Shown here: positions 22,712 to 61,598 of the stretch, piece after piece | Numbering within the stretch: the stretch's first letter is position 1 | Layout: every line of letters starts with the position of its first letter | Source: an uncultured Chloroflexia bacterium | GTDB lineage: Bacteria; Chloroflexota; Anaerolineae; Anaerolineales; UBA4823 | Assembly: GCA_963736805.1 (NCBI GenBank) | Contig: CAVTQM010000058.1 | Coordinates: 150,589-214,588, forward strand | DNA length: 64,000 nt | Reading direction: 5' to 3' | The notes under the pieces: model-generated | Database searches by the model: none | What the model was told of the DNA's origin: nothing | What the model saw: only the letters and a program-made list of their open reading frames with translations | Translations under genes and position numbers: made by a program

Positions 22712-23926
22712 ATGGCAAACATTATCGATGAAGCAAAAGAAGTATTTGATTACACCCGGGATCTCCGTCGTGATTTTCATATGCATCCAGAATTAGGGTT
22801 TAAAGAAATTCGAACAGCAAACATTGTAAATAAAGAATTATCCAATATGGGGCTAGAAGTTAAAACCGGTGTGGGTCAAACGGGTGTTGTAGCTCTGATA
22901 GAAGGAAAAAATCCTGGCCCAGTCGTATTAATCCGTTTTGACATGGATGCCCTTCCTATTCAGGAAGAAACCGATGCTGATTACGCGTCCACCAATCCGG
23001 GTGTGATGCATGCATGTGGACATGATGGACATGTGGCGATCGGGCTGACTGTTGCTCGTTTAATAAACAAGCATCGGTCTGAGTTTTCTGGAACAGTAAA
23101 ATTAGTTTTTCAACCTGCAGAAGAAGGGCTTGGCGGAGCAGAATGGATGATTAAAGACGGCGTATTACAAAGCCCTCAACCTGATTTTGCATTGGCGCTT
23201 CATGTTTGGAATGAGAAACCAGTTGGATGGATTGGTATTGTTCCTGGTCCTGTGATGGCAGCTGCGGATACGTTCTCAATAAAAATTATTGGAAAAGGTG
23301 GACATGGTGCTGCGCCACATCTATGCAATGACCCTATCCTGGCAGCTGCACAAGTGGTTAATTTGCTGCAGGGAATTGTATCCAGGAATGTTTCGCCATT
23401 AAAATCAGCTGTAGTAACAGTCGCTTCCATTCATGGGGGAGAAGCATTCAATGTCATCCCGCCGGACGTGGAATTGAAAGGAACAATTCGCTCATTCGAA
23501 CCTGAAATCCGGGCTATGGTAATCAGGCGATTTCATGAGATTGTAGAACATGTAGCCATAGCAACGGGGTGTGAATCGCAAGTAGATATACGATCAATTA
23601 CGCCTGCAGTAATAAATCACCCTGATGTTACATACCGCGTTCAACAAACAGCCAGCCGAATCCTTCCAAATGCTCAGTTCGATTACCAAACGATAACCAT
23701 GGGATCAGAAGATATGGCTTATATGATGCAGGAGATACCCGGATGTTATTTCTTTATAGGCTCAGCAAATAGTGAAAAGAAACTGGATGCATCCCACCAC
23801 CATCCTAAATTTGACTTCGATGAAACTATCCTCCCAAACGCTGTTGGTTTAATGGTAGCTTCTACATTGGAATTTCTTAGGGAATTAATGAACAAAAGGT
23901 CAAGGAGAAAAGATGACCATCGATAA
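22712..23926 (+). CDS. M20D-family amidohydrolase, second paralogue
   Basis: Intact 404 aa with the same signature blocks as 8509-9696 (FHMHPELGFKE, RFDMDALP, GVMHACGHDGH). Confidence 0.8.
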   Translation: MANIIDEAKEVFDYTRDLRRDFHMHPELGFKEIRTANIVNKELSNMGLEVKTGVGQTGVVALIEGKNPGPVVLIRFDMDALPIQEETDADYASTNPGVMHACGHDGHVAIGLTVARLINKHRSEFSGTVKLVFQPAEEGLGGAEWMIKDGVLQSPQPDFALALHVWNEKPVGWIGIVPGPVMAAADTFSIKIIGKGGHGAAPHLCNDPILAAAQVVNLLQGIVSRNVSPLKSAVVTVASIHGGEAFNVIPPDVELKGTIRSFEPEIRAMVIRRFHEIVEHVAIATGCESQVDIRSITPAVINHPDVTYRVQQTASRILPNAQFDYQTITMGSEDMAYMMQEIPGCYFFIGSANSEKKLDASHHHPKFDFDETILPNAVGLMVASTLEFLRELMNKRSRRKDDHR

Positions 23927-25755
23927 TAGGGCTTACAACAGCGGAAATGGAAAATTAATGGCACCTGTCATCAATAATTTTAATATTACCGTAGCAACTG
24001 TAAATGGCTCAGGCAGTCAGACATCCAACCTGACCTTAATGCGGGCATTATTCAAGATGGGAATACCGGTTTCTGGTAAAAACCTTTTTCCATCAAATAT
24101 CCAGGGATTACCTACCTGGTATACGATCAGGATAAATGAGGATGGTTTTTTAGCCAGGTGTGAGACCCAAGAGATATCTGTGGCAATGAATTCAGCTACT
24201 TTTATCAAAGATATGGAAGGTTTGGTTGAAGGTGGCGTTTTATTTTTTGATGACTCTATAAAAATCCCGATTAATCGAACTGATATTCATCAATACCCCA
24301 TGCCCGTCAATAAAATGGTACGAGATTCTAATGCTCCCACGAGCCTCCGTGATTACCTGGCAAATATGGTTTATGTTGGGATCGTTGCCAATATTATAGG
24401 GATAGATATGGACAATATCTACCAGGCTTTGGAATTCCATTTTAAAGGTAAACAAAAACCAATTGAGATGAATTGGGGCATGGTAAGCAATGCATACGAT
24501 TGGGCAGCTGGGAATCTCCATAAAGAAGATTCATATTTTGTAAAACCCTCCAATAAAACAACCGGCTACATTATGGCAGATGGCAATACAGCAGCTGCCC
24601 TAGGCGCTTTGTATGGCGGATTACAATTTGCTGCCTGGTATCCAATTACACCAGCAACATCGTTAGCTGAGACAATCAATGAATTTGTCCCCGTATTCCG
24701 TAAGGATCCGATCTCTGGGAAGAACACTTGTGTCGTATTACAAGCTGAAGACGAACTCGCGGCTATCGGAATGGTAGTCGGAGCTGGTTGGTCTGGATTA
24801 CGGGCAATGACTTCTACATCGGGACCCGGTCTTAGCTTGATGGTTGAATATGTTGGTTTAGCATATTTTTCGGAAGTACCATTGGTAATTTGGGATATTC
24901 AACGCATTGGTCCTTCAACCGGTCTTCCAACCCGAACTTCGCAGGGTGATCTTCGGTTAGCCCATTTTATGGGTCATGGAGATGCAAAGCACGTAATTAT
25001 ATTACCCGGATCGGTCACGGAATGTTTTGAATTTGGCTGGAAGGCGTTTGATATTGCCGAGAGGTTACAGACACCTGTAATCGTCTTATCGGATTTGGAT
25101 TTTGGTATGAACCAATGGATGACAAAACCATTTGAGTACCCAGATAAACCGATGGATCGCGGGAAGGTCTTGTGGGAGGAAGATGTACAAAAAATGGAAT
25201 CGAAATGGGGTCGTTATTTGGATCTTGATGGAGATGGAATAACATACCGTACACTTCCAGGAAATAAAGCGCCAAACGCTGCTTATTTTGCTCGTGGGAC
25301 TGGTCATGATGAGTATGCCAATTACAGTGAACAACCAGAGGATTGGGAAAAAAACCTGCTTCGATTAGAGCGGAAAATAGACAGTAATATTGCGTTGCTT
25401 CCAAAACCAATCATAAAAACGACCAGTGGTGCGAAAATAAGCGTTATATCCTATGGATCGACTGATGTGGCAATAGAACGAAGCAATGACTTTCTTGTTA
25501 AAAAATGGATTGAAGATTGATCACTTACGGGTTCGGTCCTTGCCTGCAGGTTCTGAATTGACTGACTTTGTACATGAGCATGAACGAAATTATGTGGTAG
25601 AACTTAATCGAGACGGACAATTGCACCAAATACTTTGCTTAGAAATCCCCGATAGCTCGATGAAATTAATTTCTCTATCACATCTGGATGGACTACCTAT
25701 GACAGCCCAATGGGTAGTTAATCAAATAACCGCCAAAGAGGATGAACATAAATGA
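23913..25755 (+). CDS. 2-oxoacid:ferredoxin oxidoreductase alpha subunit (fused gamma-alpha type), one frame break near 25486-25520
   Basis: The 535-aa ORF plus the 89-aa ORF 25486-25755 in another frame give a KorA-type subunit. The likely real start is MAPVINNF.. at about 23958. Confidence 0.8.
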
Positions 25756-26798
25756 CAGATCAACTATCACAAACTCCTAGGACACAGGTTAATCTTGTCG
25801 GATTATCCAAGAATGATTATCGGGGTAATCCAAGCTCATTATGTCAGGGATGTGGGCATAACTCCATCTCTAGCCAAATTATCGCTGCTTGTTTTGAAAT
25901 GAATATTATCCCTGAAAACGTAGTCAAATTTAGTGGGATTGGTTGTTCAAGTAAAAGCCCATTCTATTTTTTAAACCGTTCTTTTGGTTTTAATGGACTT
26001 CATGGACGTATGCCATCATTGGCAACCGGAGCAATGTTTGGGAATATCTTTTTAAAAGGTATTGGAGTGAGTGGAGACGGGGATACAGCCAGTATTGGTA
26101 TGGGACAATTCAAACATATCGTCCGTAGAAATGTTCCCTTGGTATATATTGTTGAGAATAATGGGGTGTATGGATTGACAAAAGGCCAGTTTTCTGCCAC
26201 TGCTGATGAGGGCTTGGAACTTAAAAAGCAAGGTACAAATCCTTATTTACCAGTAGATATTGCCTGGGAAGCGCTGGTTAGTCATGCAACCTTTGTGGCA
26301 CGTTCTTTTGCGGGTGACCCGAAACAGGTGAAAGAATTGATTAAAGCTGCCCTTAGCCATAACGGAATTGCTGTTCTAGATATCATTAGTCCTTGTGTTA
26401 CTTTTAACAACCAGGATACTACAAGTCACTCCTATTCGTGGGGGAAAGAACATGAAGTGGCATTGCATGATTTATCATTTGTACCTTATGCGGAAGAGAT
26501 CTTGGTAGATTATGAGGATGGTCAAATAAAGGAGGTGACCATGCACGATGGGTCAATGGTGATACTAAAGAAATTGGAACGAGATTATGATCCGAAAAAT
26601 CGCGCTGAGGCGATGAGGGTTTTGGAAGAATCCAATAAAGATTGTTGCCTGATCACTGGTTTGATCTATATCGATGAAAACTCACCTACTCTTTTTGAAT
26701 TATATAACCTGCCTGATGAACCTTTAAATCGACTTACAGAGGATCGGTTACGCCCACCAAGGGAATCAATCGATAAAGTAAATGAAATGATGTTCTGA
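25752..26798 (+). CDS. 2-oxoacid:ferredoxin oxidoreductase beta subunit (TPP-binding)
   Basis: Carries CQGCGHNSI and GDGD...N TPP-binding blocks. There is a 4-nt overlap with the alpha subunit. Confidence 0.85.
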   Translation: MTDQLSQTPRTQVNLVGLSKNDYRGNPSSLCQGCGHNSISSQIIAACFEMNIIPENVVKFSGIGCSSKSPFYFLNRSFGFNGLHGRMPSLATGAMFGNIFLKGIGVSGDGDTASIGMGQFKHIVRRNVPLVYIVENNGVYGLTKGQFSATADEGLELKKQGTNPYLPVDIAWEALVSHATFVARSFAGDPKQVKELIKAALSHNGIAVLDIISPCVTFNNQDTTSHSYSWGKEHEVALHDLSFVPYAEEILVDYEDGQIKEVTMHDGSMVILKKLERDYDPKNRAEAMRVLEESNKDCCLITGLIYIDENSPTLFELYNLPDEPLNRLTEDRLRPPRESIDKVNEMMF

Positions 26799-26802
26799 AA
26801 TA

Positions 26803-26832
26803 AAAATCCCGCATTTTCTGCGGGATTTTTTC
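26803..26832. terminator. Bidirectional rho-independent terminator between convergent operons
   Basis: Stem ATCCCGCA / TGCGGGAT (26806-26813 / 26819-26826), flanked by an A run on one side and a T run on the other. Confidence 0.6.
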
Positions 26833-26876
26833 AATCTTACAAGCCATCTACTTATTTTATGAGATTGTTCTACAAA

Positions 26877-27338
26877 TTATGAAGGTTTGAAATAAGCAAT
26901 ATCCAGTATTGAACCGATTCGCTCAGATGCTGGTTTAAAGACAGCCTGGACGGTCATCCCAAAATTTATCTGCTCCGGGTCAATTTCACCCAAACGATGG
27001 ATTAATCCACCATCGCCGAAACGAATAAAGGCAATGATCTGTGGTACATCGCTTGAACTTCCATCGAGGTTGACATGCAAGACAGTATAAGTATCCACCT
27101 CACCACTTGTTCCAACATCTATCCATTCATCAAGTTTAGCAAGACACCGCTCGCAAAATATTGCAGCTGGTACATAAGTGTGATCACAGTGGGGGCAATA
27201 CGTTCCAAGAATTTTACTTTCATCCTTCAATGTACGAAAGAATTTTTCTCCTGCCAAACCGTATGTATACCGGTTTGTAACCGGTAATTCCCCCTGCCAA
27301 TTTAAAGGTGAATTAGGATCCCGATTTAGAAGTGGCAT
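26877..27338 (-). CDS. DUF35 family protein (Zn-ribbon + OB fold), copy 2
   Basis: The likely start is MPLLNRDP at 27338, with an AAGGAG RBS inside the end of the upstream gene. It has a C4 ribbon (CPHCDHTYVPAAIFCERC) followed by an OB-fold-like C-terminus. Confidence 0.75.
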   Translation of the reverse strand: MPLLNRDPNSPLNWQGELPVTNRYTYGLAGEKFFRTLKDESKILGTYCPHCDHTYVPAAIFCERCLAKLDEWIDVGTSGEVDTYTVLHVNLDGSSSDVPQIIAFIRFGDGGLIHRLGEIDPEQINFGMTVQAVFKPASERIGSILDIAYFKPS

Positions 27339-27339
27339 A

Positions 27340-27855
27340 TTAATTCTCCTTTGCAGGTTTAAAATACAAGATATCGGTAATGGAACCTTGTCTCTCATTA
27401 GCAGGTTTCCATACAGCTTGAACTCGCATCCCAATCTTTACTTCTTGTGGATCAATTTCACCGAGCATATGCATGATGCCGTGCAGCGGGGATGCCCCAT
27501 CGATGTTTATCACTGCAGGGATTTCCGGATCCTTTATCCTTTGAACATCCCAAGTAACGTAACAAAGGGAAAATGTATTTACAATCCCTGTATCCTGCAG
27601 TGGTATAAATTCATCCATCGGTCGAAAACACCATTCGCAGAATATTCGGGGAGGCACAACAATTTTCCGGCATGTTTTACAATGACTACCGAGAATTACA
27701 CCATTTTTAAGTGAAGCCAGGTATGCTCCAATCCCAATTCCTGTATCCCAAGAAAACACACCGTTGAGTTTATCAAAATTATATAAAATCTTACCATTTG
27801 AAAAATCCTGCTCATTTAAGGAAGTTCCAGGAAATTCTTTAATTTTTGCAGTCAT
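27340..27855 (-). CDS. DUF35 family protein (Zn-ribbon + OB fold), copy 1
   Basis: 171 aa with a C4 ribbon (CKTCRKIVVPPRIFCEWC) and an OB-fold-like C-terminus. Confidence 0.75.
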   Translation of the reverse strand: MTAKIKEFPGTSLNEQDFSNGKILYNFDKLNGVFSWDTGIGIGAYLASLKNGVILGSHCKTCRKIVVPPRIFCEWCFRPMDEFIPLQDTGIVNTFSLCYVTWDVQRIKDPEIPAVINIDGASPLHGIMHMLGEIDPQEVKIGMRVQAVWKPANERQGSITDILYFKPAKEN

Positions 27856-27865
27856 ATATCACTCC

Positions 27866-29032
27866 TTATCTCCCCATGATAACAACCGTACCCACTTGCA
27901 TCAAGTCACCCCAGGCTTGAGCTAGTCCCCGGCGAGGTTGACCTGGAACTTGACGCAAACCGGCTTCACCGCGCAACTGCCAGAATAACTCAGCAATTTT
28001 CATCAACCCTGCAGCTGCAATTGGATTTCCGACGCCTAATAATCCTCCGGATGGGCATATAGGCATATTGCCAGTGCGAGAGGCTGTGCCATCACTATAC
28101 AATTCCGCGGCTTTGCCTCTTTCTGCGAGTTGAAGACCTTCCAAATGGTGCAAGGCTTTGTAATCAAATGGGTCGTATGGTTCGGCAATATGAATCTCCT
28201 TGCGAGGCTCTTTGATTCCTGCCATATCATATGCCATTCGGGCAGCATATTCCACATATCGAGGATAGGCAAGATCCCGGTTTGTCCAGTAGGATGTGTC
28301 CAGATGCCAGCCTACACCTTCAATCCAAACTGGTTTATCGGTGATCCGTTTTGCAATATGCTCGGCAGCCAATATCACAGCAACTGCGCCATCGGATACC
28401 GGACTTACATCAAAACGTTGAACTGGCCAAGCTAACACTTCTGAGTTCAGGATATCATCCAATGTAATATTGGCATCTCCCAAGAGGGAGCACGGATGGT
28501 CTGCAGCATTCCTTTTATGCTGAACAGCAACCTGAGCGATATCAGCCTTGGAAATTCCATAAGTGGTCATATAGCGGTTCATTTCCAATGCAAATATCCA
28601 AAGCAGGTTTGGTTTTAATGGGCGTTCAGTTGTGTGATCGAAAATCGTCAAAAAAGCTGCTTGTGCATGAGGATAATATGACGACATTTTTTCTTCTGCC
28701 ACAACCATGACAACATCGAATAATCCTGATGCAATGTGATACCAACCTTGGATTGGGACAAACACACCGGTGCCGCCTCCAACATAGGAGCGCATATAAG
28801 GTTTTCGCCAAGCACCTGCTCCGTCGCTTAAATATTCTCCATTCAAATGTACACCGTCAAAAGCATCAGGAGCAGTCCCAAGGCAAACTGCTTCAATATC
28901 ATCCATGGTCATCTCGCAAGATTCTAAGGCCATATGCGCAGCTTCCCAGGATAATTCTTTGGGTGTCTCCTGCGCGCGTCTAACAAATTTTGTCATTCCA
29001 GCACCAACAACGGCTACTTTACGCATTCCCAT
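27866..29032 (-). CDS. Thiolase-fold (SCP-x/archaeal thiolase-like) protein lacking the catalytic Cys and His
   Basis: 388 aa with thiolase-like ends (MRKVAVVGAGMTKF..., ..QLRGEAGLRQV..). The nucleophile segment reads YVGGGTGVF instead of ..ACxSG.., and GHPxGATG is replaced by GVGNPIAAAG. Confidence 0.75.
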   Translation of the reverse strand: MGMRKVAVVGAGMTKFVRRAQETPKELSWEAAHMALESCEMTMDDIEAVCLGTAPDAFDGVHLNGEYLSDGAGAWRKPYMRSYVGGGTGVFVPIQGWYHIASGLFDVVMVVAEEKMSSYYPHAQAAFLTIFDHTTERPLKPNLLWIFALEMNRYMTTYGISKADIAQVAVQHKRNAADHPCSLLGDANITLDDILNSEVLAWPVQRFDVSPVSDGAVAVILAAEHIAKRITDKPVWIEGVGWHLDTSYWTNRDLAYPRYVEYAARMAYDMAGIKEPRKEIHIAEPYDPFDYKALHHLEGLQLAERGKAAELYSDGTASRTGNMPICPSGGLLGVGNPIAAAGLMKIAELFWQLRGEAGLRQVPGQPRRGLAQAWGDLMQVGTVVIMGR

Positions 29033-29045
29033 AGAGGTATCCTTT

Positions 29046-30198
29046 CTAGTTAGCGAGAATTAGAACTGCACCGCTATTGGTTGGCACACCACGCCAGGAT
29101 TGTGCCAGACCGATGTTCGTATCTTCAACCTGTCGAGCCCCTGCTTCGCCTCGTAGTTGAAGAATAATCTCGTAGGTACGTGCGAGCCCATTGGCTTCTA
29201 GGAGATTACCCATACCCAGACTTCCACCTGATACATTAACTGGTAATCCACTATCCGGGGATGTAAAACCTTCAGTGGTTAAATTACCAGCTTCCCCTTC
29301 TCTGCAAAAACCCAATGCTTCTAGAGCCTGTAATTCTTTGTAAGCATAAGTGTCGTCGACTTCTGCAATGTCAATTGCTTCAAGTGGATTATTAATTCCA
29401 GCCTGTTTATATGCCATACGTGCCAGCTGCTTCTGCATATATTGCACGTGACCAATCACGATTTTCCAGAGAGGGAGAATCATTATTCCAACCAACGCCC
29501 AAGATCCATATAGGTTTGTCTGTGAGTGAAGTTGCACTTTCCTGTGATGCAAGGACCATAACAATGGCCCCGTCCGAATGGTCTGCTATTTCACGTTTTC
29601 CGAGTGGCCAGGAAAAAACAGGTCCTGAAAGGACATCTTCAATTGAGAGATTTGCACCATAAGGGGCTAATGGATTTGATAACGCATTAAATCTATTTTT
29701 TGTTACCACCGCTGCGCAGTGTTCATGCAAGGTTCCCGAAACGTATAAATATCGATTCATTTCTAAGCCAGCAATAAAATGGCTGTTTAGAGATAAAGGA
29801 CGGTTTAAAACAGGATCCTGCGCATAGGCAGTTATATTGGGTAAGGTTTTTATATTTGAGGCTTTACTATGCCCTTCGACAGCGACAATATCAAATTGAC
29901 CGGTACGGATTAACATGTAAGCTGTAGCAATTCCGTGTAATCCATCCCCTGTTATCGTATGCACGGGTTTCAAAGCCCCGCCGATTTGATCTGGAGTATA
30001 TTCGTCAAAGATGCTGGTACCCTCATGAAAATCCTCGGCTACAGTAACAAAACTCTCAATATCCCTGCGAGGATCAACACCAGCATCATTATAAGCACGC
30101 ACGGCAGCTTCATAAACCATTTCTTTATACGATTGTTCAGGTGAAACAGACCGAAATCCTGTACAACCTACTCCCACAATGGCAACTCTTTCATGCAT
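29046..30198 (-). CDS. Second thiolase-fold protein lacking the catalytic Cys and His, one frame break (29407-29564)
   Basis: The start MHERVAIVGVGCTGF is at 30198, behind an AAGGAGG RBS. The nucleophile segment is HTITGDGLHG and the His segment is GMGNLLEANG. The two ORF pieces are in different frames. Confidence 0.7.
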
Positions 30199-30257
30199 GG
30201 ATACCTCCTTATAATTAGACCTAATCATGTGGTGGTTACCTTATCACAGCTTGTGAA

Positions 30258-31169
30258 CTAATTTTCGGATTGAGCCTCCTTTTCTTTGGATAATCGCCCT
30301 CTTTCAGCCATTGATGCAAGACCTATACTGATGAAGTATAAAACTATCATTGGAGCCATAACAAGTCCCATATTTACTGGATCTACAGTAGGTGTTATTG
30401 ACGCCGCTAATATCGCTATGATTACAATAGCTAATTTCCACTGCTCGAGAAGGTTTTTTGCTTTGATCAAACCAAGATTAGCTAGTAAATATATCACCAA
30501 TGGAAATTCAAAAGTCACACCAATCCAAAACATTATGAGGGTCACAAAATTATAATATGAAGAAGGGCGTGGTTGGGTGGTTAAACCCATAAAATTAAAT
30601 AGAAATGGTAACGCGGTTGGAAGCATCACATAGAAAGCAAATGCCATACCACCAATAAAAAGGAATATTGCTACTGGGATTGCAATTAGTCCTTTTATAC
30701 GTGATTTAACTCGAAGTGCTGGTGCAACGAACAGCCATATTTCGAAGATTACATAGGGTAATGCAATCGTAAATCCACTCAGAAGAGTTACCCGCATCAC
30801 GGTGCCGACATTTTCAGTTACATCGATAGCAACTAGTTCATCCATGCCACCAGCCATGGGTGCTGCCAGATAATTCAGGATACTCTCCACAACTAAGAAG
30901 GATAATGCTGTGGCAATAATTATCGCTAAAACACCACGGAGCAGATGTTTCCGTAATGCATTAAGGTGGGGAAGAAGTGCTTTTGGATTCTCAATTGTGG
31001 TTGAGAAGGATTTAGCAATGGGAGTATCATCCAATTCTTCTTCTTTAAAATACGAATTAATGGTTTGCAATCCATGATTAATGAAAGTACTTAACCGGTG
31101 CATGACTCGAACTATGAAACGTGCTGGAAAAGTAATAAAATTCCAAATCGAACGGAGCATTTTTCGCAT
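30258..31169 (-). CDS. tatC: Twin-arginine translocase subunit TatC
   Basis: 303-aa polytopic protein with the TatC core beginning at ..LPHLNALRKHLLRG.., preceded by an N-terminal extension of about 65 aa. Confidence 0.85.
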   Translation of the reverse strand: MRKMLRSIWNFITFPARFIVRVMHRLSTFINHGLQTINSYFKEEELDDTPIAKSFSTTIENPKALLPHLNALRKHLLRGVLAIIIATALSFLVVESILNYLAAPMAGGMDELVAIDVTENVGTVMRVTLLSGFTIALPYVIFEIWLFVAPALRVKSRIKGLIAIPVAIFLFIGGMAFAFYVMLPTALPFLFNFMGLTTQPRPSSYYNFVTLIMFWIGVTFEFPLVIYLLANLGLIKAKNLLEQWKLAIVIIAILAASITPTVDPVNMGLVMAPMIVLYFISIGLASMAERGRLSKEKEAQSEN

Positions 31170-55372: not shown

Positions 55373-57713
55373 TCATTTTAACATTTTTTGAACTGCGATT
55401 ACTGCCTGACCAAGAGCTACTCCACCATCATTTGTCGGGACTAGATGATGATAATGTATCTGAAACTTCTCTGATTCGAGTAAATCACAAGTTCGATGTA
55501 GCAAGGTCATATTTTGCCAGACTCCACCACTTAGTACAACCTTGTTAATTCCAAAGTCGCTCCGAAGAGTCTTACATACTTCGCTGACCATTCGGGATAT
55601 TGAGTTGTGGAAGCGAGCGGAAATAATTGAAATTGATGTGCCGTTCTGGACTTCCGACAATACTTCTCCAATTAATTCTGCTGGATTAATTTGGTATATT
55701 GGGTAGGGAGAATTTTCTAGGGGTTCCAAGCGCCAGGAATACTCCCCTTCTTCGTTTTTATCGACCAACGCTTCAAACTCAATCGCAGCTTGAGCTTCAT
55801 AATTTATTTTTTGACGGACACCCACAATTGAAGCTACTGCATCAAAGAAACGACCCATACTGGAAGTAAACGGAGTATTTATTTTCAACTCAAGTTGCGA
55901 TTTAAGTATAGATCTTTCTTCAGCACACAGCTCTGATGAATGGATGATGTTCTAGATCCCATTCGTGATTGTATGTCCATAAATATGCTAATGCAATTCT
56001 GGCAGGTTTCCGGATTGATGCATCACCACCGGGAAGGGGAACATATTTTAAGTGGCACACTCGTTTGAAACCTTGGAAATCAGACAACAAGAACTCCCCA
56101 CCCCAAATTGCTCCATCATCACCGAAACCTGTCCCATCGAATGCCACACCTATCACTGGCTCATCGGAGAATAAACCATTTTCTGCCATGCAGGCAGCGA
56201 TATGCGCATGGTGATGCTGAATCCCGTAGGTTGGTAAATTCTCACGTACACCTCGGTCAACTGCATATCGAGAAGACAGATAATTGGGATGCAGGTCATG
56301 TGCTATAGCGACAGGATTAATTCGGAATAATGATTCATAGTGAGTAACGCTGTCTACGAATGAATCATAGGTTTCTACATTTTCCATATCACCGATGTGG
56401 TGACTTAAAAATGCATAGCGATCACGTACAACACAAAAAGTGTTCTTTAACTCTGCTCCTACGGCTAAAGTTGGCAACGATTTGAAATTTAGATATACGG
56501 GAAAAGGAGCGTAACCACGTGACCTTCGTAGAGGAAAACTTGCGCCGCGAAAGATCCGGATGACTAAATCATCACAGCGAGTACGGATCGAACGATTATG
56601 GATTAAATACGCATCCGCCAGACCAGATAACCGTTCAAACGCTTCATCGTTATTAACCGCAATCGGTTCCTCACTTAAATTTCCACTTGTCATAACCAAT
56701 GGTGGCATGCATAAGTTTCGCTTTTGAAATTTGCTATTCTGTGAGAACAGAAGATAATGTAAAGGAGAATATGGGAGCATTATCCCCAAAGTATTTTGAT
56801 TTGGAGAAACTTCCTTTGCTATTGAAGAATTAACCCTTCGAGCAAGGACTACAATGGGACGTTGGGGAGATGAAAGTAACTCCCGTTCAGCACTGTCGAC
56901 CAAGCAATGGGCTTCAATAGATGCGATATCTGCCAACATAAGGGCAAATGGTTTATCGATACGGAGTTTTCGATTACGTAATTCTACAACTGCTTTGGGA
57001 TTAGTTGCATCACAAGCCAGATGAAATCCTCCCAATCCCTTAATCGCGATAATCTTGCCATTGATCAACAACTTCTGGGCTGTAATTATTGCCTCATCAC
57101 CTTCAGCAGCAAATTGATTTTTAGCATCTCTTTTTTTGGCAGGTAATTCCAACCATACTTTGGGACCACATACTGGACATGCAATCGGCTGAGCGTGAAA
57201 GCGTCGATCAGTTGGGTCGAGGTATTCATGCTCACAATCCGGGCACATTTTGAAATCCTTCATAGTTGTATATGGACGATCATAAGGAATTTCTTCAATA
57301 ATCGTCAGGCGAGGTCCACAATTTGTACAATTAATAAAAGGATAACGGAATCGTCGGTTTGTTTGATCAAATAACTCGTTCAAACAATCTTGACATATGC
57401 AAATATCAGGAGAAATTGGTTGAAATGAGTCGGATACTTGTTTTGAATGGATTATTTCAAATGAATTAATTTGGACGTATGGTATTTGTTTGTGCTCGAA
57501 TGTGTCGATACGGGCAAGAGGTGGGAAATTTGTATTTATGTGTTGGATAAAAATGGATACAGCGTTTCGATCTCCATATACTTCAATATCCACACCAGCA
57601 GATGTATTACATACCCAACCCGTTAATCCATGCTGGATAGCTTGATTATAAACAAAAGGTCGAAATCCCACTCCCTGAACAATACCAGTAATGTGTATTT
57701 TTGTGCCAATCAT
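55373..57713 (-). CDS. hypF: Carbamoyltransferase HypF, one frame break (about 55888-55935)
   Basis: It has an acylphosphatase-like N-terminus (ITGIVQGVGFRPFVY), four CxxC zinc-finger pairs, and YrdC-like and Kae1-like domains. The C-terminal piece begins ..INTPFTSSMGRFFDAVA. Confidence 0.9.
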
Positions 57714-57734
57714 GTAGATTATTATTGATACGAA

Positions 57735-58394
57735 TTAATTCTTATTTCCAACAACATCAGCGATCCAATTAATCCAATTCTCAAGACCTTCTCCCGTTTT
57801 ACATGAAAGCTGAAAAGTTATTAGTCCCGGATTTAGTATTTCCACACCTTTTCGAAAATAGTCCATGTTAAATGGTACGTAAGGTAGTAAGTCAATTTTA
57901 TTAATCACCAAAGCATCCACGCCTCGATACATTCCAGGATATTTATACGGTTTATCATCTCCCTCAGGGATGGATGCGATTAATACACTTTTATGTGAGC
58001 CTAATTGGAAACTTGCTGGACATACAAGATTTCCAACATTTTCGATAATAATTGCATCGAATAGTTGTAAATCCATCTGCTTCAAAGCAGAATTAATCAT
58101 GACCGCATCCAGATGACATTGACCACCGGTATTGATTTGAATTGCATATGCGCCGGCAGCTTGAGCACGATCTGAATCAATACTTGTATCAATATCACCA
58201 TCAATAACTGCAAGTTTCATGGTATTTAGCAAGCGTTTTATGGTCTGCTCAATAAGAGAAGTTTTCCCAGCGCCTGGAGACGCCATGATATTAAAAGCTT
58301 TAATACCTACTGCGTCGAACATACTCTGGTTTTCCGAAGCGATACGGTCATTTGCACTTAATAATTTTTCAATCACGAGTAGTTTATTAGTCAT
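57735..58394 (-). CDS. hypB: Hydrogenase nickel incorporation GTPase HypB
   Basis: 219 aa with the P-loop SPGAGKTSL and the ENVGNLVCP metal/switch motif. There is no His-rich N-terminus. Confidence 0.85.
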   Translation of the reverse strand: MTNKLLVIEKLLSANDRIASENQSMFDAVGIKAFNIMASPGAGKTSLIEQTIKRLLNTMKLAVIDGDIDTSIDSDRAQAAGAYAIQINTGGQCHLDAVMINSALKQMDLQLFDAIIIENVGNLVCPASFQLGSHKSVLIASIPEGDDKPYKYPGMYRGVDALVINKIDLLPYVPFNMDYFRKGVEILNPGLITFQLSCKTGEGLENWINWIADVVGNKN

Positions 58395-58412
58395 TGTGTT
58401 TACAAGATAATT

Positions 58413-58758
58413 TCAGGTCTCGATATCTATTGCTTCCATGTAAAATTCTTCACCTGTAATAATTTTTATATGATGACTTTTACAATCAGGACAATCAAAA
58501 CTATCATTACCAGGTGAAAACTCCTTATAACATTCCAAGCAAGCAAGAGTTGTTGGTATCCTGCGAAAATGAAGTATTGCTCTGTCTGCAAGCGTTCCTT
58601 TGGAAATGATATCCCAATAGAATTGGACAGAATCATCTATGATACTGGCTAACTGTCCAATCACCAAGTAGATGTTGGTGACATGTTTTGCATTGGCTAT
58701 TATTCGCATGGCGCAGTGATATTTCTAAGATACTCTCGGTCACCGATAATTCATGCAT
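58413..58758 (-). CDS. hypA: Hydrogenase nickel insertion protein HypA, one frame break near 58700-58712
   Basis: The canonical start MHELSVTESILEISLRHA (ATG at 58758) is in one frame. The remainder (..HVTNIYLVIGQLASIIDDSVQFYWD.., zinc site CLEC...CPDC) is in the frame of ORF 58413-58709. Confidence 0.8.
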
Positions 58759-58890: not shown

Positions 58891-60046
58891 TTATACAGAT
58901 CGAAGAATGTGAGTGATTATCGTAGCACCACTACCTCCAATATTTTGTGTCATGCCAATCTCTGCGTCGGTAACCTGTGTAGATTCTGCTTCTCCACGTA
59001 ATTGTTGAACTGCTTCTACAATTTGATAGACGCCTGTAGCACCAACTGGATGTCCACACGCTTTTAAACCACCACGTGTGCTGATTGGAATTCGTCCATT
59101 TATGGTTATTTGACCATCTAATCCCAATTTTGGAGCTTGTCCACGTTTAGAAAAACCACATGCTTCAAGAGATAACACTGACATAATTGAAAATGCATCA
59201 TGCAGCTCAAAAAAATCTATATCTTGAGGTTTTATACCAGCTTGTTGATATGCTTTAGCTGCAGATATTTCTGCTGCTGATAACCAAAGAGGATCTTTAC
59301 GGTTATGGATGGCGATTGAATCGGTAGCTGAAGCTGATCCCACAACTTTTATAATCCTTTTATTATCAGGAAGTAATGTATCAGCTGGTACTAAGAATAC
59401 AGCAGCTGCACCATCTCCAGTAGGGGATGCATCAAGCAAATTTATCGGATCTGCAATCATTCTGGCGGAAATATAATCCTTTTCAGAAATTTTATCGTGG
59501 AGACGTGCGTATGGATTGTGCATAGCATTGGCATGGGCATTGATTGAAAAAGGCGCAAAATCTGTATGTTTCCAGCCGTAGGTATGCAAATATAACCGCA
59601 TTACCAGTGCGTTAATAGCCACAAAAGAAAGTCCTTGTGCTGATTCATAATCTGCATCAGCAGCTGTAGCTAAAGCCTCTGTTGTTTCTATTGGAAGACT
59701 TTCAGTCATCTTTTCTACGCCAACAACTAAGGCACTATCGACGTCCTCAGAACTTACCGCCAGTAAACCAGCACGAAATGCGGCTGCTCCAGAACTACAT
59801 GCTGCCTCAACCTTATGAGCTTCAATTCCTGGTAGCCCAATCCAATCGGATATAAGGGCTCCAAGAATTCTCTTGTTTACTTAGAATACCAGAGAGCATA
59901 TTACCAATAAATAAGGCATCAGCGGTTTCGTGTTGAGCATCGTTTAAGGCATTAAATATCGCTGTTCCAGCCAATTCTTTTAGGGACTTATCCCAATGTT
60001 CATCAATTGGAGTTTGACCAATGCCAATAATTGCTACATCTCGCAT
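58891..60046 (-). CDS. Canonical thiolase (archaeal/SCP-x-type acetyl-CoA C-acyltransferase), one frame break near 59830-59880
   Basis: The N-terminus is MRDVAIIGIGQTP. The middle, read by hand, has ..IEAHKVEAACSSGAAAFRAG.. (nucleophile Cys present). The C-terminus has ACGHPVGATG and QLRGEA. Confidence 0.75.
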
Positions 60047-60232
60047 GAGTATATCCTTTGATATGGAATAACAACCAAATTATGCCAGAGTATATCCATC
60101 ATTACCTATCACATTTGGGAGAACAGCTTGATTCCAAATATACACTTACATATAAATGCGTATAGTCATTATTCCTATAGTAAATTTAAAGCATATTATA
60201 AAATCAAATTTGGTAAAATACCCTATAACTAT

Positions 60233-61598
60233 ATGAAAATAAATAAACCAGAATTAATCATTGTTGGGGGTGGACTAGCTGGATCAGAAGCAGCATGGCA
60301 AGTCGCAATGGGCGGGATGAGAGTTCGCTTGTATGAGATGCGCCCTTTTTTGTCGACTGGCGCACATCAGAGCGCTTACCTCTCTGAGTTGGTTTGCTCA
60401 AATTCATTAGGATCCAATTTCTTAGAAAGTGCTTCCGGGATATTAAAGCATGAGCTAAGAATGCTTGGCTCATTGTTAATAAAATGTGCAGATGAGTCAG
60501 CCGTTCCTGCTGGTGGGGCATTAGCTGTAGATCGTGAAATGTTTTCGAAAAAAGTAAGTGAGCTGATCGAAAACCATCCAAATATCGAAGTTATACGTCA
60601 AGAGGTTATTACTGTTCCCAAGGAACCGTGCATCATAGCATCAGGACCTCTAACATCAGCCAGATTATCAATGGCAATTCAGAAGTTAACTGGTATAGAT
60701 CAGATCTATTTTTATGATGCCATCGCTCCAATTGTTTACCAAGAATCTATTAACAAGGATATTGTTTTTTCCGGATCTAGATATCGTATGCAAGGTCATA
60801 CCTCGAATGGTGATTATTTAAATTGTCCCATGAATAAGGATGAGTATTATTCTTTCGTTGATGAACTAGTCAGAGCAGAAATTATTAATCTATCGATATT
60901 TGAGAAGAATATTACTCAAGGTGTACGGGCAGGAATTCGCCAAGTATTTTGAAGGATGTCTTCCCATCGAGGTTATAGCTTTAAGGGGCAAGGAATCTTT
61001 AGCATTTGGTCCATTACGACCGATAGGTTTGACTGATACAAGAAACGGTAGAAAATCATATGCGATAGTTCAATTACGTCAAGATAATCTGGCAAAAACA
61101 CTCTATAATATGGTTGGTTTTCAAACTAACTTAAAATATTCAGAACAAAAAAGAGTTTTTAGAATGATTCCAGGTTTAGAGCAGATTGAATTTGCTCGGT
61201 TTGGTCAGATGCACCGAAACACTTTTATTTTTTCTCCTTCATTACTTTCTCCGACGTTACAATTTCAATTCAGGGAAGATTTATTCTTTGCAGGTCAAAT
61301 AACCGGTGTTGAAGGATACGCTAGCAATATTGCCACAGGCCTTTTAGCCGGAATAAATGCTGTAAACTATCTTAAGGGTAAACCTCTCATTGAATTTCCA
61401 CAGAATACGATGATTGGAGCTCTTTGTCACTATATTACCCATGCGGATGTTAAAGATTTTCAACCTATGAAAGCGAATTTAGGAGTTTTACCCAACCTGA
61501 GTATTGAAATCAAAGGGAAACGCATGCGCGCAATCGCCTATGCAGAGCGTTCAGAATCTACTATGAAAGCAAGTATTGCAGAATTGATTAAAGAATGA
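60233..61598 (+). CDS. trmFO: Methylenetetrahydrofolate--tRNA-(uracil-5)-methyltransferase TrmFO, one frame break (60900-60952)
   Basis: The likely start is [23 protein letters not shown] (FAD GxGxxG). The second ORF continues the family-typical sequence (..[12 protein letters not shown]..). Confidence 0.85.

Follow-up and report, generated by a model that had tools for sequence, protein, structure and literature searches.

DUF35 proteins accompany a number of thiolase-fold enzymes, some of which, such as the aldolases Ltp2 and Sal, lack the nucleophilic cysteine of classical thiolases. Here a locus of this kind was analyzed in an uncultured Chloroflexia bacterium of the Anaerolineae (GenBank assembly GCA_963736805.1, contig CAVTQM010000058.1, positions 150,589 to 214,588 of the forward strand); this stretch of 64,000 nucleotides is referred to as the window. 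The locus is a module of four genes on the minus strand (positions 26877 to 30198 of the window) which encode two thiolase-like proteins, B and A, and two DUF35 proteins, D1 and D2. The view that the module is heteromeric and is not a thiolase was found to be well supported.

In Ltp2-ChsH2(DUF35) and Sal-Shy(DUF35) (structures 6ok1 and 9myr), as in protein A, a fold of the sterol carrier protein 2 (SCP2) type is devoid of the nucleophilic Cys, has a Gly and the Tyr of a Y-D-x-F loop, and is joined by a DUF35 partner, which is obligate in Ltp2 and Sal (PMC12329534). They differ from the module in being homodimeric and in having as their DUF35 the tail of a MaoC hydratase, whereas D1 and D2 are stand-alone proteins and there are two different large subunits. 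In addition, Ltp2 and Sal possess a second catalytic residue (Tyr344 in Ltp2 and Cys304 in the YDCY loop of Sal), where A has Asn336 and Pro288, respectively.

The Ltp3/Ltp4 proteins of actinobacterial sterol side-chain catabolism (PRK08313 and PRK07937) resemble the module in having two adjacent Cys-less thiolase-fold genes together with two DUF35 units. In a Streptomyces pair of this type (locus L086), the larger member carries Gly, Tyr (Y-x-P-F) and Asn (x-N-P) like A, and the smaller one is degenerate like B; this pair adjoins a crotonase gene and a gene for a 313-aa oligonucleotide/oligosaccharide-binding (OB)-fold protein, which was taken as a double DUF35. However, A scored 255 bits against the PRK08313 cut-off of 514, and B scored 92 bits against the PRK07937 cut-off of 419. 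Unlike Ltp3/Ltp4, the module has a full-length B (383 aa), separate DUF35 units and no steroid-catabolic context, it is found in anaerobic Chloroflexota, archaea and soil lineages, and its conservation is far higher.

Among solved structures, the archaeal DUF35-partnered thiolases, in which DUF35 is an integral subunit, are closest to A, both by sequence and by fold. These enzymes keep the Cys, the HD(C/A)F loop and the GHP loop and carry out Claisen chemistry, whereas all of these elements are replaced in the module. Moreover, the second thiolase-fold subunit of the archaeal complex is of the hydroxymethylglutaryl-CoA synthase (HMGCS) or 3-ketoacyl-acyl carrier protein synthase III (KAS-III) type, whereas B is a thiolase paralogue. 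PhlACB and MucABC share with the module two different thiolase-fold subunits plus DUF35, one large subunit being catalytically silent, but they require Cys88 of PhlC or MucB (absent in A and B), have a KAS-III/HMGCS-like partner and belong to a secondary-metabolite cluster. The SCP2-type protein TbSLP of Trypanosoma brucei (PDB 5ab4-7) is Cys-less at the nucleophile position and has a Tyr-Asp-x-Phe loop like A; it binds acyl-CoAs, and its sole reported activity is that of a weak malonyl-CoA decarboxylase. It differs in that it is eukaryotic, keeps the Cys of its YDCF loop and has neither DUF35 nor a paralogous partner subunit. The use of DUF35 is common to the archaeal thiolase/HMGCS complex, the Sulfolobus ketothiolase (KT)/DUF35 system, BbsAB and PhlACB/MucABC, all of which keep the catalytic Cys, unlike the module. 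Judged by these features, the module would work like the Ltp3/Ltp4 and Ltp2/Sal families but stand outside both of them.

Catalytic residues of A and B

The register of the catalytic positions was taken from HMMER pairwise alignments to five solved thiolases and from three multiple alignments, all of which agreed. At the position of the nucleophilic Cys, A was found to have Gly86 (codon at 28775-28777, minus strand) in the motif VGGGTG, which HMMER aligned with AACASG of 7yvy. The HDCF loop of 6esq and of the zebrafish SCP2-thiolase 6hsj is replaced by YDPF (Tyr286 to Phe289, codons at 28166-28177), and the GHP loop reads GNP, with Asn336 (codon at 28025-28027) in place of the His. All these codons were checked in the DNA. 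In B, the nucleophile position is held by Thr83, flanked by a deletion of three residues, the HD(C/A)F loop reads DDTY and the GHP loop reads GNL. The canonical thiolase of the window (58891-60046) retained CSS, HDAF and GHP.

The replacements in A are not a peculiarity of the window. Gly86, Thr88, Gly89, Tyr286, Pro288, Phe289, Tyr291, Asn336 and Pro337 were invariant in 59 bacterial and archaeal orthologues, and Gly86 and Asn336 were also invariant in the wider A-type family. No conserved Cys was found anywhere in A among the same 59 orthologues, nor anywhere in B across 10 lineages. A Cys acting in trans from B, D1 or D2 was considered as well and rejected: the sole Cys outside the zinc ribbons, Cys98 of D1, is unconserved beyond Anaerolineae and the soil lineage.

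A has a thiolase fold, as indicated by its Pfam domains (Thiolase_N and Thiolase_C_1) and by the similarity of its model to 7yvy and 6esq. Nevertheless, both A and B lack the residues which define a thiolase, that is, the nucleophilic Cys, the His of GHP and the His/Cys of HDCF (or of NEAF/CxG). Because the catalytic residues are replaced and no conserved Cys occurs in A or B, a classical thiolase mechanism is excluded, at the level of sequence, for both proteins alike. That A and/or B should still be ordinary thiolases whose missing residues are an artefact of alignment is suggested by their database name, acetyl-CoA C-acetyltransferase. This explanation has next to no likelihood, since independent alignments share one register and neither protein has a conserved Cys, so that it is refuted by the sequences themselves. 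The first-pass annotation of the window had reported the catalytic Cys and His to be missing from both large proteins; its register, set by eye, was borne out by the HMMER alignments, and no Cys or His was placed at the catalytic positions of A or B.

Conservation of A and B and predicted structure of A

To compare the four proteins, columns at least 98% invariant among 82 distinct Anaerolineae sequences were counted as invariant. Such columns amounted to 50% of A, 13% of B, 23% of D1 and 9% of D2. The G86, YDPF and GNP loops of A were invariant in Anaerolineae, whereas the matching loops of B varied. At the same loci, A (75-97% identity) was better conserved than L32, NusB, FabG and TatC. B showed conserved patches of its own across ten lineages (ED..EG..I.DE..PDQ.G, SKAS and WRG.P). 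Because A is strongly conserved, including its rebuilt loops, and B is much freer, A is probably the catalytic subunit and B probably a structural or ligand-binding, non-catalytic partner of A.

The AlphaFold model of A, built from 59 sequences down to 38% identity, had a predicted local distance difference test score (pLDDT) of 82.9 and a predicted template modelling score (pTM) of 0.88; a model from 29 sequences at 85% identity or more had a pLDDT of 39.6 and was discarded as unusable. The template modelling (TM) score of the retained model was 0.85-0.91 to the archaeal thiolases 7yvy and 6esq, 0.81-0.83 to the Ltp2/Sal structures (0.81 to Ltp2) and approximately 0.8 to TbSLP. The fold search did not discriminate an aldolase from a thiolase, as all DUF35-associated thiolase-fold structures gave TM scores of 0.8-0.9. 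Only residues 84-87, 119-140 and 332-337 were modelled with low confidence. They correspond to the replacement of the nucleophile loop, to a stretch of the loop domain (PH.Q.AF.TIFD, conserved within Anaerolineae) and to the replacement of the GHP loop, respectively. Since strict conservation and uncertain conformation are combined in these segments, the model suggests that they may be ordered only within the complex.

Evidence for one heteromeric complex

The genes follow one another on the minus strand as B (29046-30198, 383 aa after repair of a broken frame described below; Pfam Thiolase_C_1 in its C-terminal part), A (27866-29032, 388 aa; Pfam Thiolase_N and Thiolase_C_1), D1 (27340-27855, 171 aa) and D2 (26877-27338, 153 aa). 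The gaps between B and A, A and D1, and D1 and D2 are 13, 10 and 1 nt, respectively. The ATG of D2 begins one base past the stop codon of D1 (junction GGAGAATTAATATG), and a GGAG lies within the end of D1. B is preceded by the Shine-Dalgarno sequence AAGGAGG (30204-30210), read from the sequence 5 bases before its start codon at 30196-30198. A promoter and terminator scan of positions 26600-30500 gave no signal exceeding the shuffled expectation. Both D1 and D2 are DUF35 proteins by their Pfam scores (zf-ChsH2 and OB_ChsH2_C, above cut-off) and by their position next to thiolase-fold genes. Each has a CxxC...CxxC zinc ribbon, formed by Cys59, 62, 73 and 76 in D1 and by Cys48, 51, 62 and 65 in D2, followed by an OB fold, and these Cys are invariant across lineages. 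The four co-directional, tightly spaced genes of the first-pass annotation were reproduced in position by the open reading frames (ORFs) and Pfam matches, and every peptide string it quoted was present in the sequence.

The order B-A-D1-D2 was constant in all fetched loci long enough to show it. It was found in 84 of 84 Anaerolineae loci whose contig permits a reading, and also in the readable loci of the soil lineage, in Bathyarchaeota, in a second archaeal lineage, in a Dehalococcoidia metagenome-assembled genome (MAG), in a 'Deltaproteobacteria' MAG and in others. Yet another lineage encodes A, D1 and D2 as a single fusion protein of 731 aa (cluster P0122, 27 members), with a B gene before it. 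One example lies at L087:1479-4780 (GCA_046766275.1), where a B-like gene of 367 aa precedes the fusion; the zinc ribbon of the D2-like part of the fusion is degenerate (WCDELE...FCENG).

The invariant gene order, the translational coupling of the genes and the natural A-D1-D2 fusion indicate that B, A, D1 and D2 very probably form one heteromeric complex. In known assemblies of thiolase-fold and DUF35 proteins, each large subunit bears one DUF35, as exemplified by the alpha-beta-beta-alpha organization of Sal-Shy(DUF35) (PMC12329534) and of Ltp2-ChsH2(DUF35). By analogy, an A·B·D1·D2 unit would accommodate two different large subunits and two different DUF35 proteins. The set of two large and two small subunits proposed earlier therefore very probably holds as a heteromeric complex, on the strength of gene order and fusion, but the large subunits are not equivalent, as an active-site signature is conserved in A only.

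Distribution of the module

A genome scan with a four-sequence alignment of the A type as the query found that at least 554 species-representative genomes encode a relative; the best 80 were all Chloroflexota/Anaerolineae MAGs, at 76-97% identity. A profile search extended the range, with orthologues at 66-75% identity, to Candidatus Bathyarchaeota, Methanofastidiosia, Dehalococcoidia, 'Deltaproteobacteria' and bacterium HR23. When the window was compared with Bathyarchaeota, identity was 67% for A, 58% for B, 51% for D1 and 45% for D2. The A proteins of Bacteria and Archaea share 67-70% identity; for ordinary thiolases compared between the same pairs of organisms, the figure is 35-40% (40% for the canonical thiolases of the window and Bathyarchaeota). 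This cross-domain identity points to very strong constraint or to inter-domain transfer of the whole module, and probably to both.

A belongs to the NCBIfam family NF004721 (PRK06065; 625 bits, cut-off 455), and the best match of B was NF004722 (PRK06066; 460 bits against a cut-off of 516). The soil-lineage orthologues of A and B gave the same pattern. Both families are named only 'thiolase domain-containing protein', with no function assigned.

Gene neighbourhoods

In Anaerolineae, a gene for a CoA-ester lyase of the CitE/HpcH type was found directly upstream of the module, between tatC and B, in 13 of 64 loci (e.g., L011:5936-6817); its best NCBIfam matches were citE and the itaconate-degradation lyase RipC, both under cut-off. 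In approximately 11 other Anaerolineae loci, the place between tatC and B is taken by a 446-aa P-loop protein with a weak match to the CobW domain (e.g., L052:5240-6580). An acyl-CoA dehydrogenase (ACAD) of the Bcd/acryloyl-CoA-reductase type was found nearby in 16 of the 64 loci, and the alpha and beta subunits of a CoA-transferase in five loci.

In the soil lineage (loci L088/L094-L173, e.g., L094:4546-7682), which is labelled 'Deltaproteobacteria' in one NCBI record, an ammonia-lyase of the 4-methylideneimidazole-5-one (MIO) type and an AMP-forming CoA ligase are located directly upstream and in the same direction (12/17 and 15/21 loci), forming an operon with the module. This ammonia-lyase has an F-L selectivity motif like that of phenylalanine ammonia-lyase (PAL) but scored under the NCBIfam cut-offs for histidine ammonia-lyase (HAL), PAL, tyrosine ammonia-lyase (TAL) and aminomutase. 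Hbd was present downstream of the module in 8 of 31 loci. A convergent block contains MeaB, an ACAD, a B12-binding subunit, a mutase and a thiolase.

In three lineages unrelated to one another, including an archaeal one, the module is flanked or enclosed by genes for a split acyl-CoA mutase, MeaB and cobalamin adenosyltransferase. Locus L179 (917-11105) reads 4HBT-Hbd-TetR-ACAD-CobA-mutase-B12 subunit-B-A-D1-D2-MeaB, in L181 (704-6244) the module comes right after the mutase and the B12 subunit, and in the archaeal locus L177 (7835-15710) it is followed by the mutase, the B12 subunit, MeaB and CobA. The associated mutases read RQF(S/A)GF and EYIAQK, so that Phe and Gln stand in for Tyr89 and Arg207 of methylmalonyl-CoA mutase, a pattern which we take to be the signature of isobutyryl-CoA mutase (ICM). 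In both archaeal lineages, a canonical Cys-containing thiolase/DUF35 pair is divergent from the module (L174:5403-11175 and L177:6093-11171), the DUF35 of the pair being short (133-139 aa). Unlike in the usual mevalonate operon, no HMG-CoA synthase gene was found between or beside this pair and the module in L174 and L177.

The theme common to these neighbourhoods is short-chain acyl-CoA chemistry around 2-enoyl-, 3-hydroxy- and 3-oxoacyl-CoA, and the gene context of the relatives points to a putative role in butyryl-, isobutyryl- and enoyl-CoA metabolism. ACAD and Hbd recurred in the neighbourhoods, but no hydratase accompanies the module regularly: crotonase and MaoC genes were absent from the orthologous loci, except for a crotonase near L092 and L173. 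Literature searches found no paper on the module or on a link between DUF35 and ICM.

The window itself has a different setting. The run rpmF-fabD-fabG-asp23-nusB-tatAC-B-A-D1-D2, first described as one operon, is genuinely present, but it represents local synteny: only roughly half of the Anaerolineae loci share it, and no locus outside Anaerolineae does. A functional tie to fabD-fabG and acyl carrier protein-dependent fatty-acid synthesis was considered and rejected; since the adjacency is confined to a part of Anaerolineae, the linkage to the fab genes is incidental. Downstream, the genes of a two-subunit 2-oxoacid:ferredoxin oxidoreductase (OFOR; 23913-26798) converge on the module, the stop codons being separated by 78 nt, an adjacency retained solely in the closest relatives (L001-L004 and L012).

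Proposed reaction and alternatives

The leading guess, which we hold tentatively and rate somewhat below an even chance, is that the complex would cleave or form a C-C bond by a retro-aldol/aldol reaction, 3-hydroxyacyl-CoA <-> aldehyde + acetyl-CoA. It would be one soluble complex in which an A/B heterodimer of SCP2/archaeal-type thiolase folds carries one DUF35 protein, D1 or D2, on each large subunit. The active site would lie in A, rebuilt without a covalent nucleophile. Gly86 would free the nucleophile position and provide a backbone NH, Tyr286 of the YDPF loop may serve as the general base, and Asn336 together with backbone amides may polarize the carbonyl of the CoA thioester; the diverged B would shape the site or hold a second ligand. 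The substrate would be a short beta-functionalized acyl-CoA, C4-like or derived from an aryl-propenoyl-CoA. We infer all of these points, from the subunit stoichiometry and the parts played by Tyr286 and Asn336 to the class of substrate and the type of reaction.

For the aldolases Ltp2 and Sal, the Tyr of the loop (Y294DHF and Y302DCY, respectively) has been proven to act as general base, and in Sal the Gly backbone at the former nucleophile position touches the substrate hydroxyl (PMC12329534). A has the same two elements, Tyr286 in a Y-D-x-F loop and Gly86, both invariant, whereas B does not (DDTY and a deletion). The Gly/Tyr/Asn signature of A also occurs in the Ltp3-like larger member of the Streptomyces Ltp3/Ltp4-type pair, and ltp3 and ltp4 have been cited as aldol-lyases (PMC6593523). 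Because A has the Gly and Tyr of Ltp2/Sal and an Ltp3-like protein has the same signature, a retro-aldol reaction appears to be the best single guess. Neighbours which make or use 2-enoyl- and 3-hydroxyacyl-CoA (ACAD, ammonia-lyase with ligase, Hbd, and mutase with MeaB) were counted in its favour.

Several findings weigh against an aldolase. A does not have the general acid of the known aldolases, as Pro288 is found where Sal has Cys304 and Ltp2 has His296; Asn336 is found where Ltp2 has Tyr344, the equivalence of Tyr344/Gln352 with Asn336 being derived from an identical +50 spacing and from the range of the 9myr alignment. True thiolases (7yvy, E 2e-43, TM 0.85-0.91) resemble A more closely than Ltp2 (6ok1, E 7e-20, TM 0.81) or Sal does. 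Apart from the crotonase near L092 and L173, no hydratase was found fused to or regularly beside the DUF35 genes, and no aldehyde-consuming enzyme recurred among the examined neighbourhoods. In L179, ACAD, Hbd and mutase share an operon from which hydratase and thiolase are both missing; a role as hydratase or thiolase would fit this pattern no less well than that of an aldolase. The window and its closest relatives have housekeeping neighbours and hence give no functional hint. The Ltp2-like aldol-lyase suggested in the first-pass annotation is thus matched by A in Gly86 and in the loop Tyr (Tyr286); the second catalytic residue is absent, with Asn336 at the position assigned to Tyr344, A is closer to thiolases, and the hydratase is missing. 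The gene context of the relatives would fit a lyase, but a hydratase or an unconventional thiolase equally.

The same operons allow other reactions to be considered. One of them is enoyl-CoA hydration: the thiolase scaffold would here carry a hydratase (a C-O lyase), acting between ACAD, or ammonia-lyase and ligase, and 3-hydroxyacyl-CoA dehydrogenase. We regard it as rather unlikely, even though crotonase and MaoC are lacking from module operons such as L179 that do encode Hbd and a source of enoyl-CoA, the gene order in the soil lineage is ammonia-lyase-ligase-B-A-D1-D2-(Hbd), ACAD is downstream in 16 of 64 Anaerolineae loci, and the retained oxyanion-hole residues could stabilize the enolate of a hydratase. 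On the other side, a crotonase is encoded near L092 and L173, hydratases could be located elsewhere in these genomes, and to our knowledge no thiolase-fold hydratase has been described. The absence of a thiolase from the ICM-Bcd-Hbd operons, where the module occupies its place, would agree with a Cys-independent thiolase or condensing enzyme, in which the CoA thiolate or the enolate of acetyl-CoA attacks the 3-oxoacyl-CoA directly, with no acyl-enzyme, at two CoA sites formed by A, B and the DUF35 subunits. In the archaeal thiolase/HMGCS complex, DUF35 takes part in forming a shared CoA site (PMC6392133), which was counted for this reaction, and the extreme conservation of the module suits a central step. 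However, in the soil lineage and in both archaeal lineages the module adjoins a canonical thiolase, which already supplies this activity, and the acid/base Cys is missing as well; we know of no precedent for such an enzyme and consider it improbable. A broader reading takes A/B/D1/D2 as the missing enzyme of a butyryl-/isobutyryl-CoA (and aryl-propenoyl-CoA) pathway common to Bathyarchaeota, Anaerolineae, Dehalococcoidia and soil lineages, acting by hydration or by Cys-free cleavage or condensation of 3-oxoacyl-CoA, a reaction new to the thiolase fold. It would account for the module replacing both crotonase and thiolase in operons with ICM, Bcd and Hbd, but we rate it well below an even chance.

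A decarboxylase of malonyl-, methylmalonyl- or another beta-carboxy or beta-keto acyl-CoA, with Tyr and Asn acting like the His/His or His/Asn pairs of ketosynthases, has a low probability. TbSLP, a Cys-less SCP2-thiolase-like protein with a YDCF loop, is reported to be a malonyl-CoA decarboxylase (PMC12329534), and this was counted in favour of such an activity. TbSLP-malonyl-CoA structures were among the fold matches of the A model. The GNPIAAAG loop of A resembles the Asn loop of FabH-type enzymes, and the mutase-MeaB-CoA-transferase neighbourhoods are reminiscent of the E. coli scpA-argK-scpB-scpC operon. Against this, no carboxylase recurs nearby, and the mutases look ICM-type (Phe/Gln, if our reading of that signature holds), with substrates that have no carboxylate, so that methylmalonyl-CoA decarboxylation in particular was down-weighted. 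It is likewise unlikely that the module is a pseudo-enzyme which scaffolds or regulates acyl-CoA enzymes (canonical thiolase, reductase or dehydratase) in the manner of DUF35 in the archaeal and Sulfolobus assemblies. The loss of all classical catalytic residues would agree with such a role, as would the inactive, structural PhlA and HMGCS-like subunits of PhlACB/MucABC, the binding of reductase and dehydratase mediated by DUF35 in S. acidocaldarius, and the canonical thiolase/DUF35 genes adjoining the module in archaea. But the residues found in the replaced loops of A (G86, Y286, P288, F289 and N336) do not vary between Bacteria and Archaea, as would be expected of a working rather than a relaxed site, and the evolution of A is slower than that of ribosomal protein L32 at the same loci.

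Frameshift in B and assembly quality

The B interval of 1153 nt does not hold one continuous frame. The frame is broken at approximately position 29423, giving ORFs at 29407-30228 and 29046-29564. DNA alignment with the relatives L001 and L002, together with the list of blastn gaps against L002, located a single extra G at 29423-29424, where the window reads GCTGGCA and the relatives read GCT-GC. Removal of one G gives back the B protein of 383 aa, and B is intact, at 383 aa, in relatives at 96-97% amino-acid identity. When positions 17861-39109 of the window were compared by blastn with contig L002, which is 93% identical, at least about 20 isolated one-base insertions were found in 21 kb, approximately one per kb (e.g., at 25479, 29423, 35094, 35397, 35598, 35606, 36099, 36352, 36842 and 38307). 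Many of them fall outside homopolymers, and they also split OFOR alpha (23913-25755) and a DUF6541 membrane protein (approximately 34.6-37 kb).

These insertions look like systematic sequencing or assembly error. Since the window has about 20 of them and B of the relatives is intact, an assembly error probably accounts for the frameshift in B. The alternative, that the module is decaying here and the locus is a pseudogene remnant with a genuine frameshift, would follow from the one-base insertion which interrupts B. It is very unlikely, because B is intact in all relatives and the approximately 20 insertions in 21 kb also break OFOR alpha, the DUF6541 protein, hypA, trmFO and the canonical thiolase. 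The location of B stands as first annotated, and its start at 30198 is supported by the AAGGAGG upstream, although the frameshift had been overlooked.

The canonical, archaeal-type thiolase at 58891-60046, which had served as an internal control in the first-pass annotation, does keep Cys and His but is itself frameshifted, near the N-terminal quarter; it is 40% identical to a Bathyarchaeota thiolase and, unlike its archaeal relatives, has no adjoining DUF35 gene. It adjoins hypF, hypB and hypA (within 55920-58758). An apparent frameshift divides hypA into two ORFs (58633-58758 and 58413-58709), and another divides a trmFO-like gene (60128-60952 and 60900-61598).

Biological implications

The module appears to be a complex whose conservation is very strong and spans two domains, with ties to butyryl/isobutyryl-CoA genes; a C-C lyase function is plausible. 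Its current annotation, 'acetyl-CoA C-acetyltransferase', names an activity which is impossible by the classical mechanism, and this wrong assignment affects metabolic reconstructions of butyrate/isobutyrate turnover, of amino-acid fermentation and of claimed beta-oxidation or entry into the mevalonate pathway. If catalytic, the module would represent an uncharacterized enzyme in abundant uncultured sediment and soil lineages, including Bathyarchaeota, and in at least 554 species-level genomes of Chloroflexota. Thiolase folds known to have been repurposed are few (Ltp2, Sal, PhlC and TbSLP); the module would join them with a 2+2 architecture that is heteromeric and with an active site of a new Gly/Tyr/Asn type.

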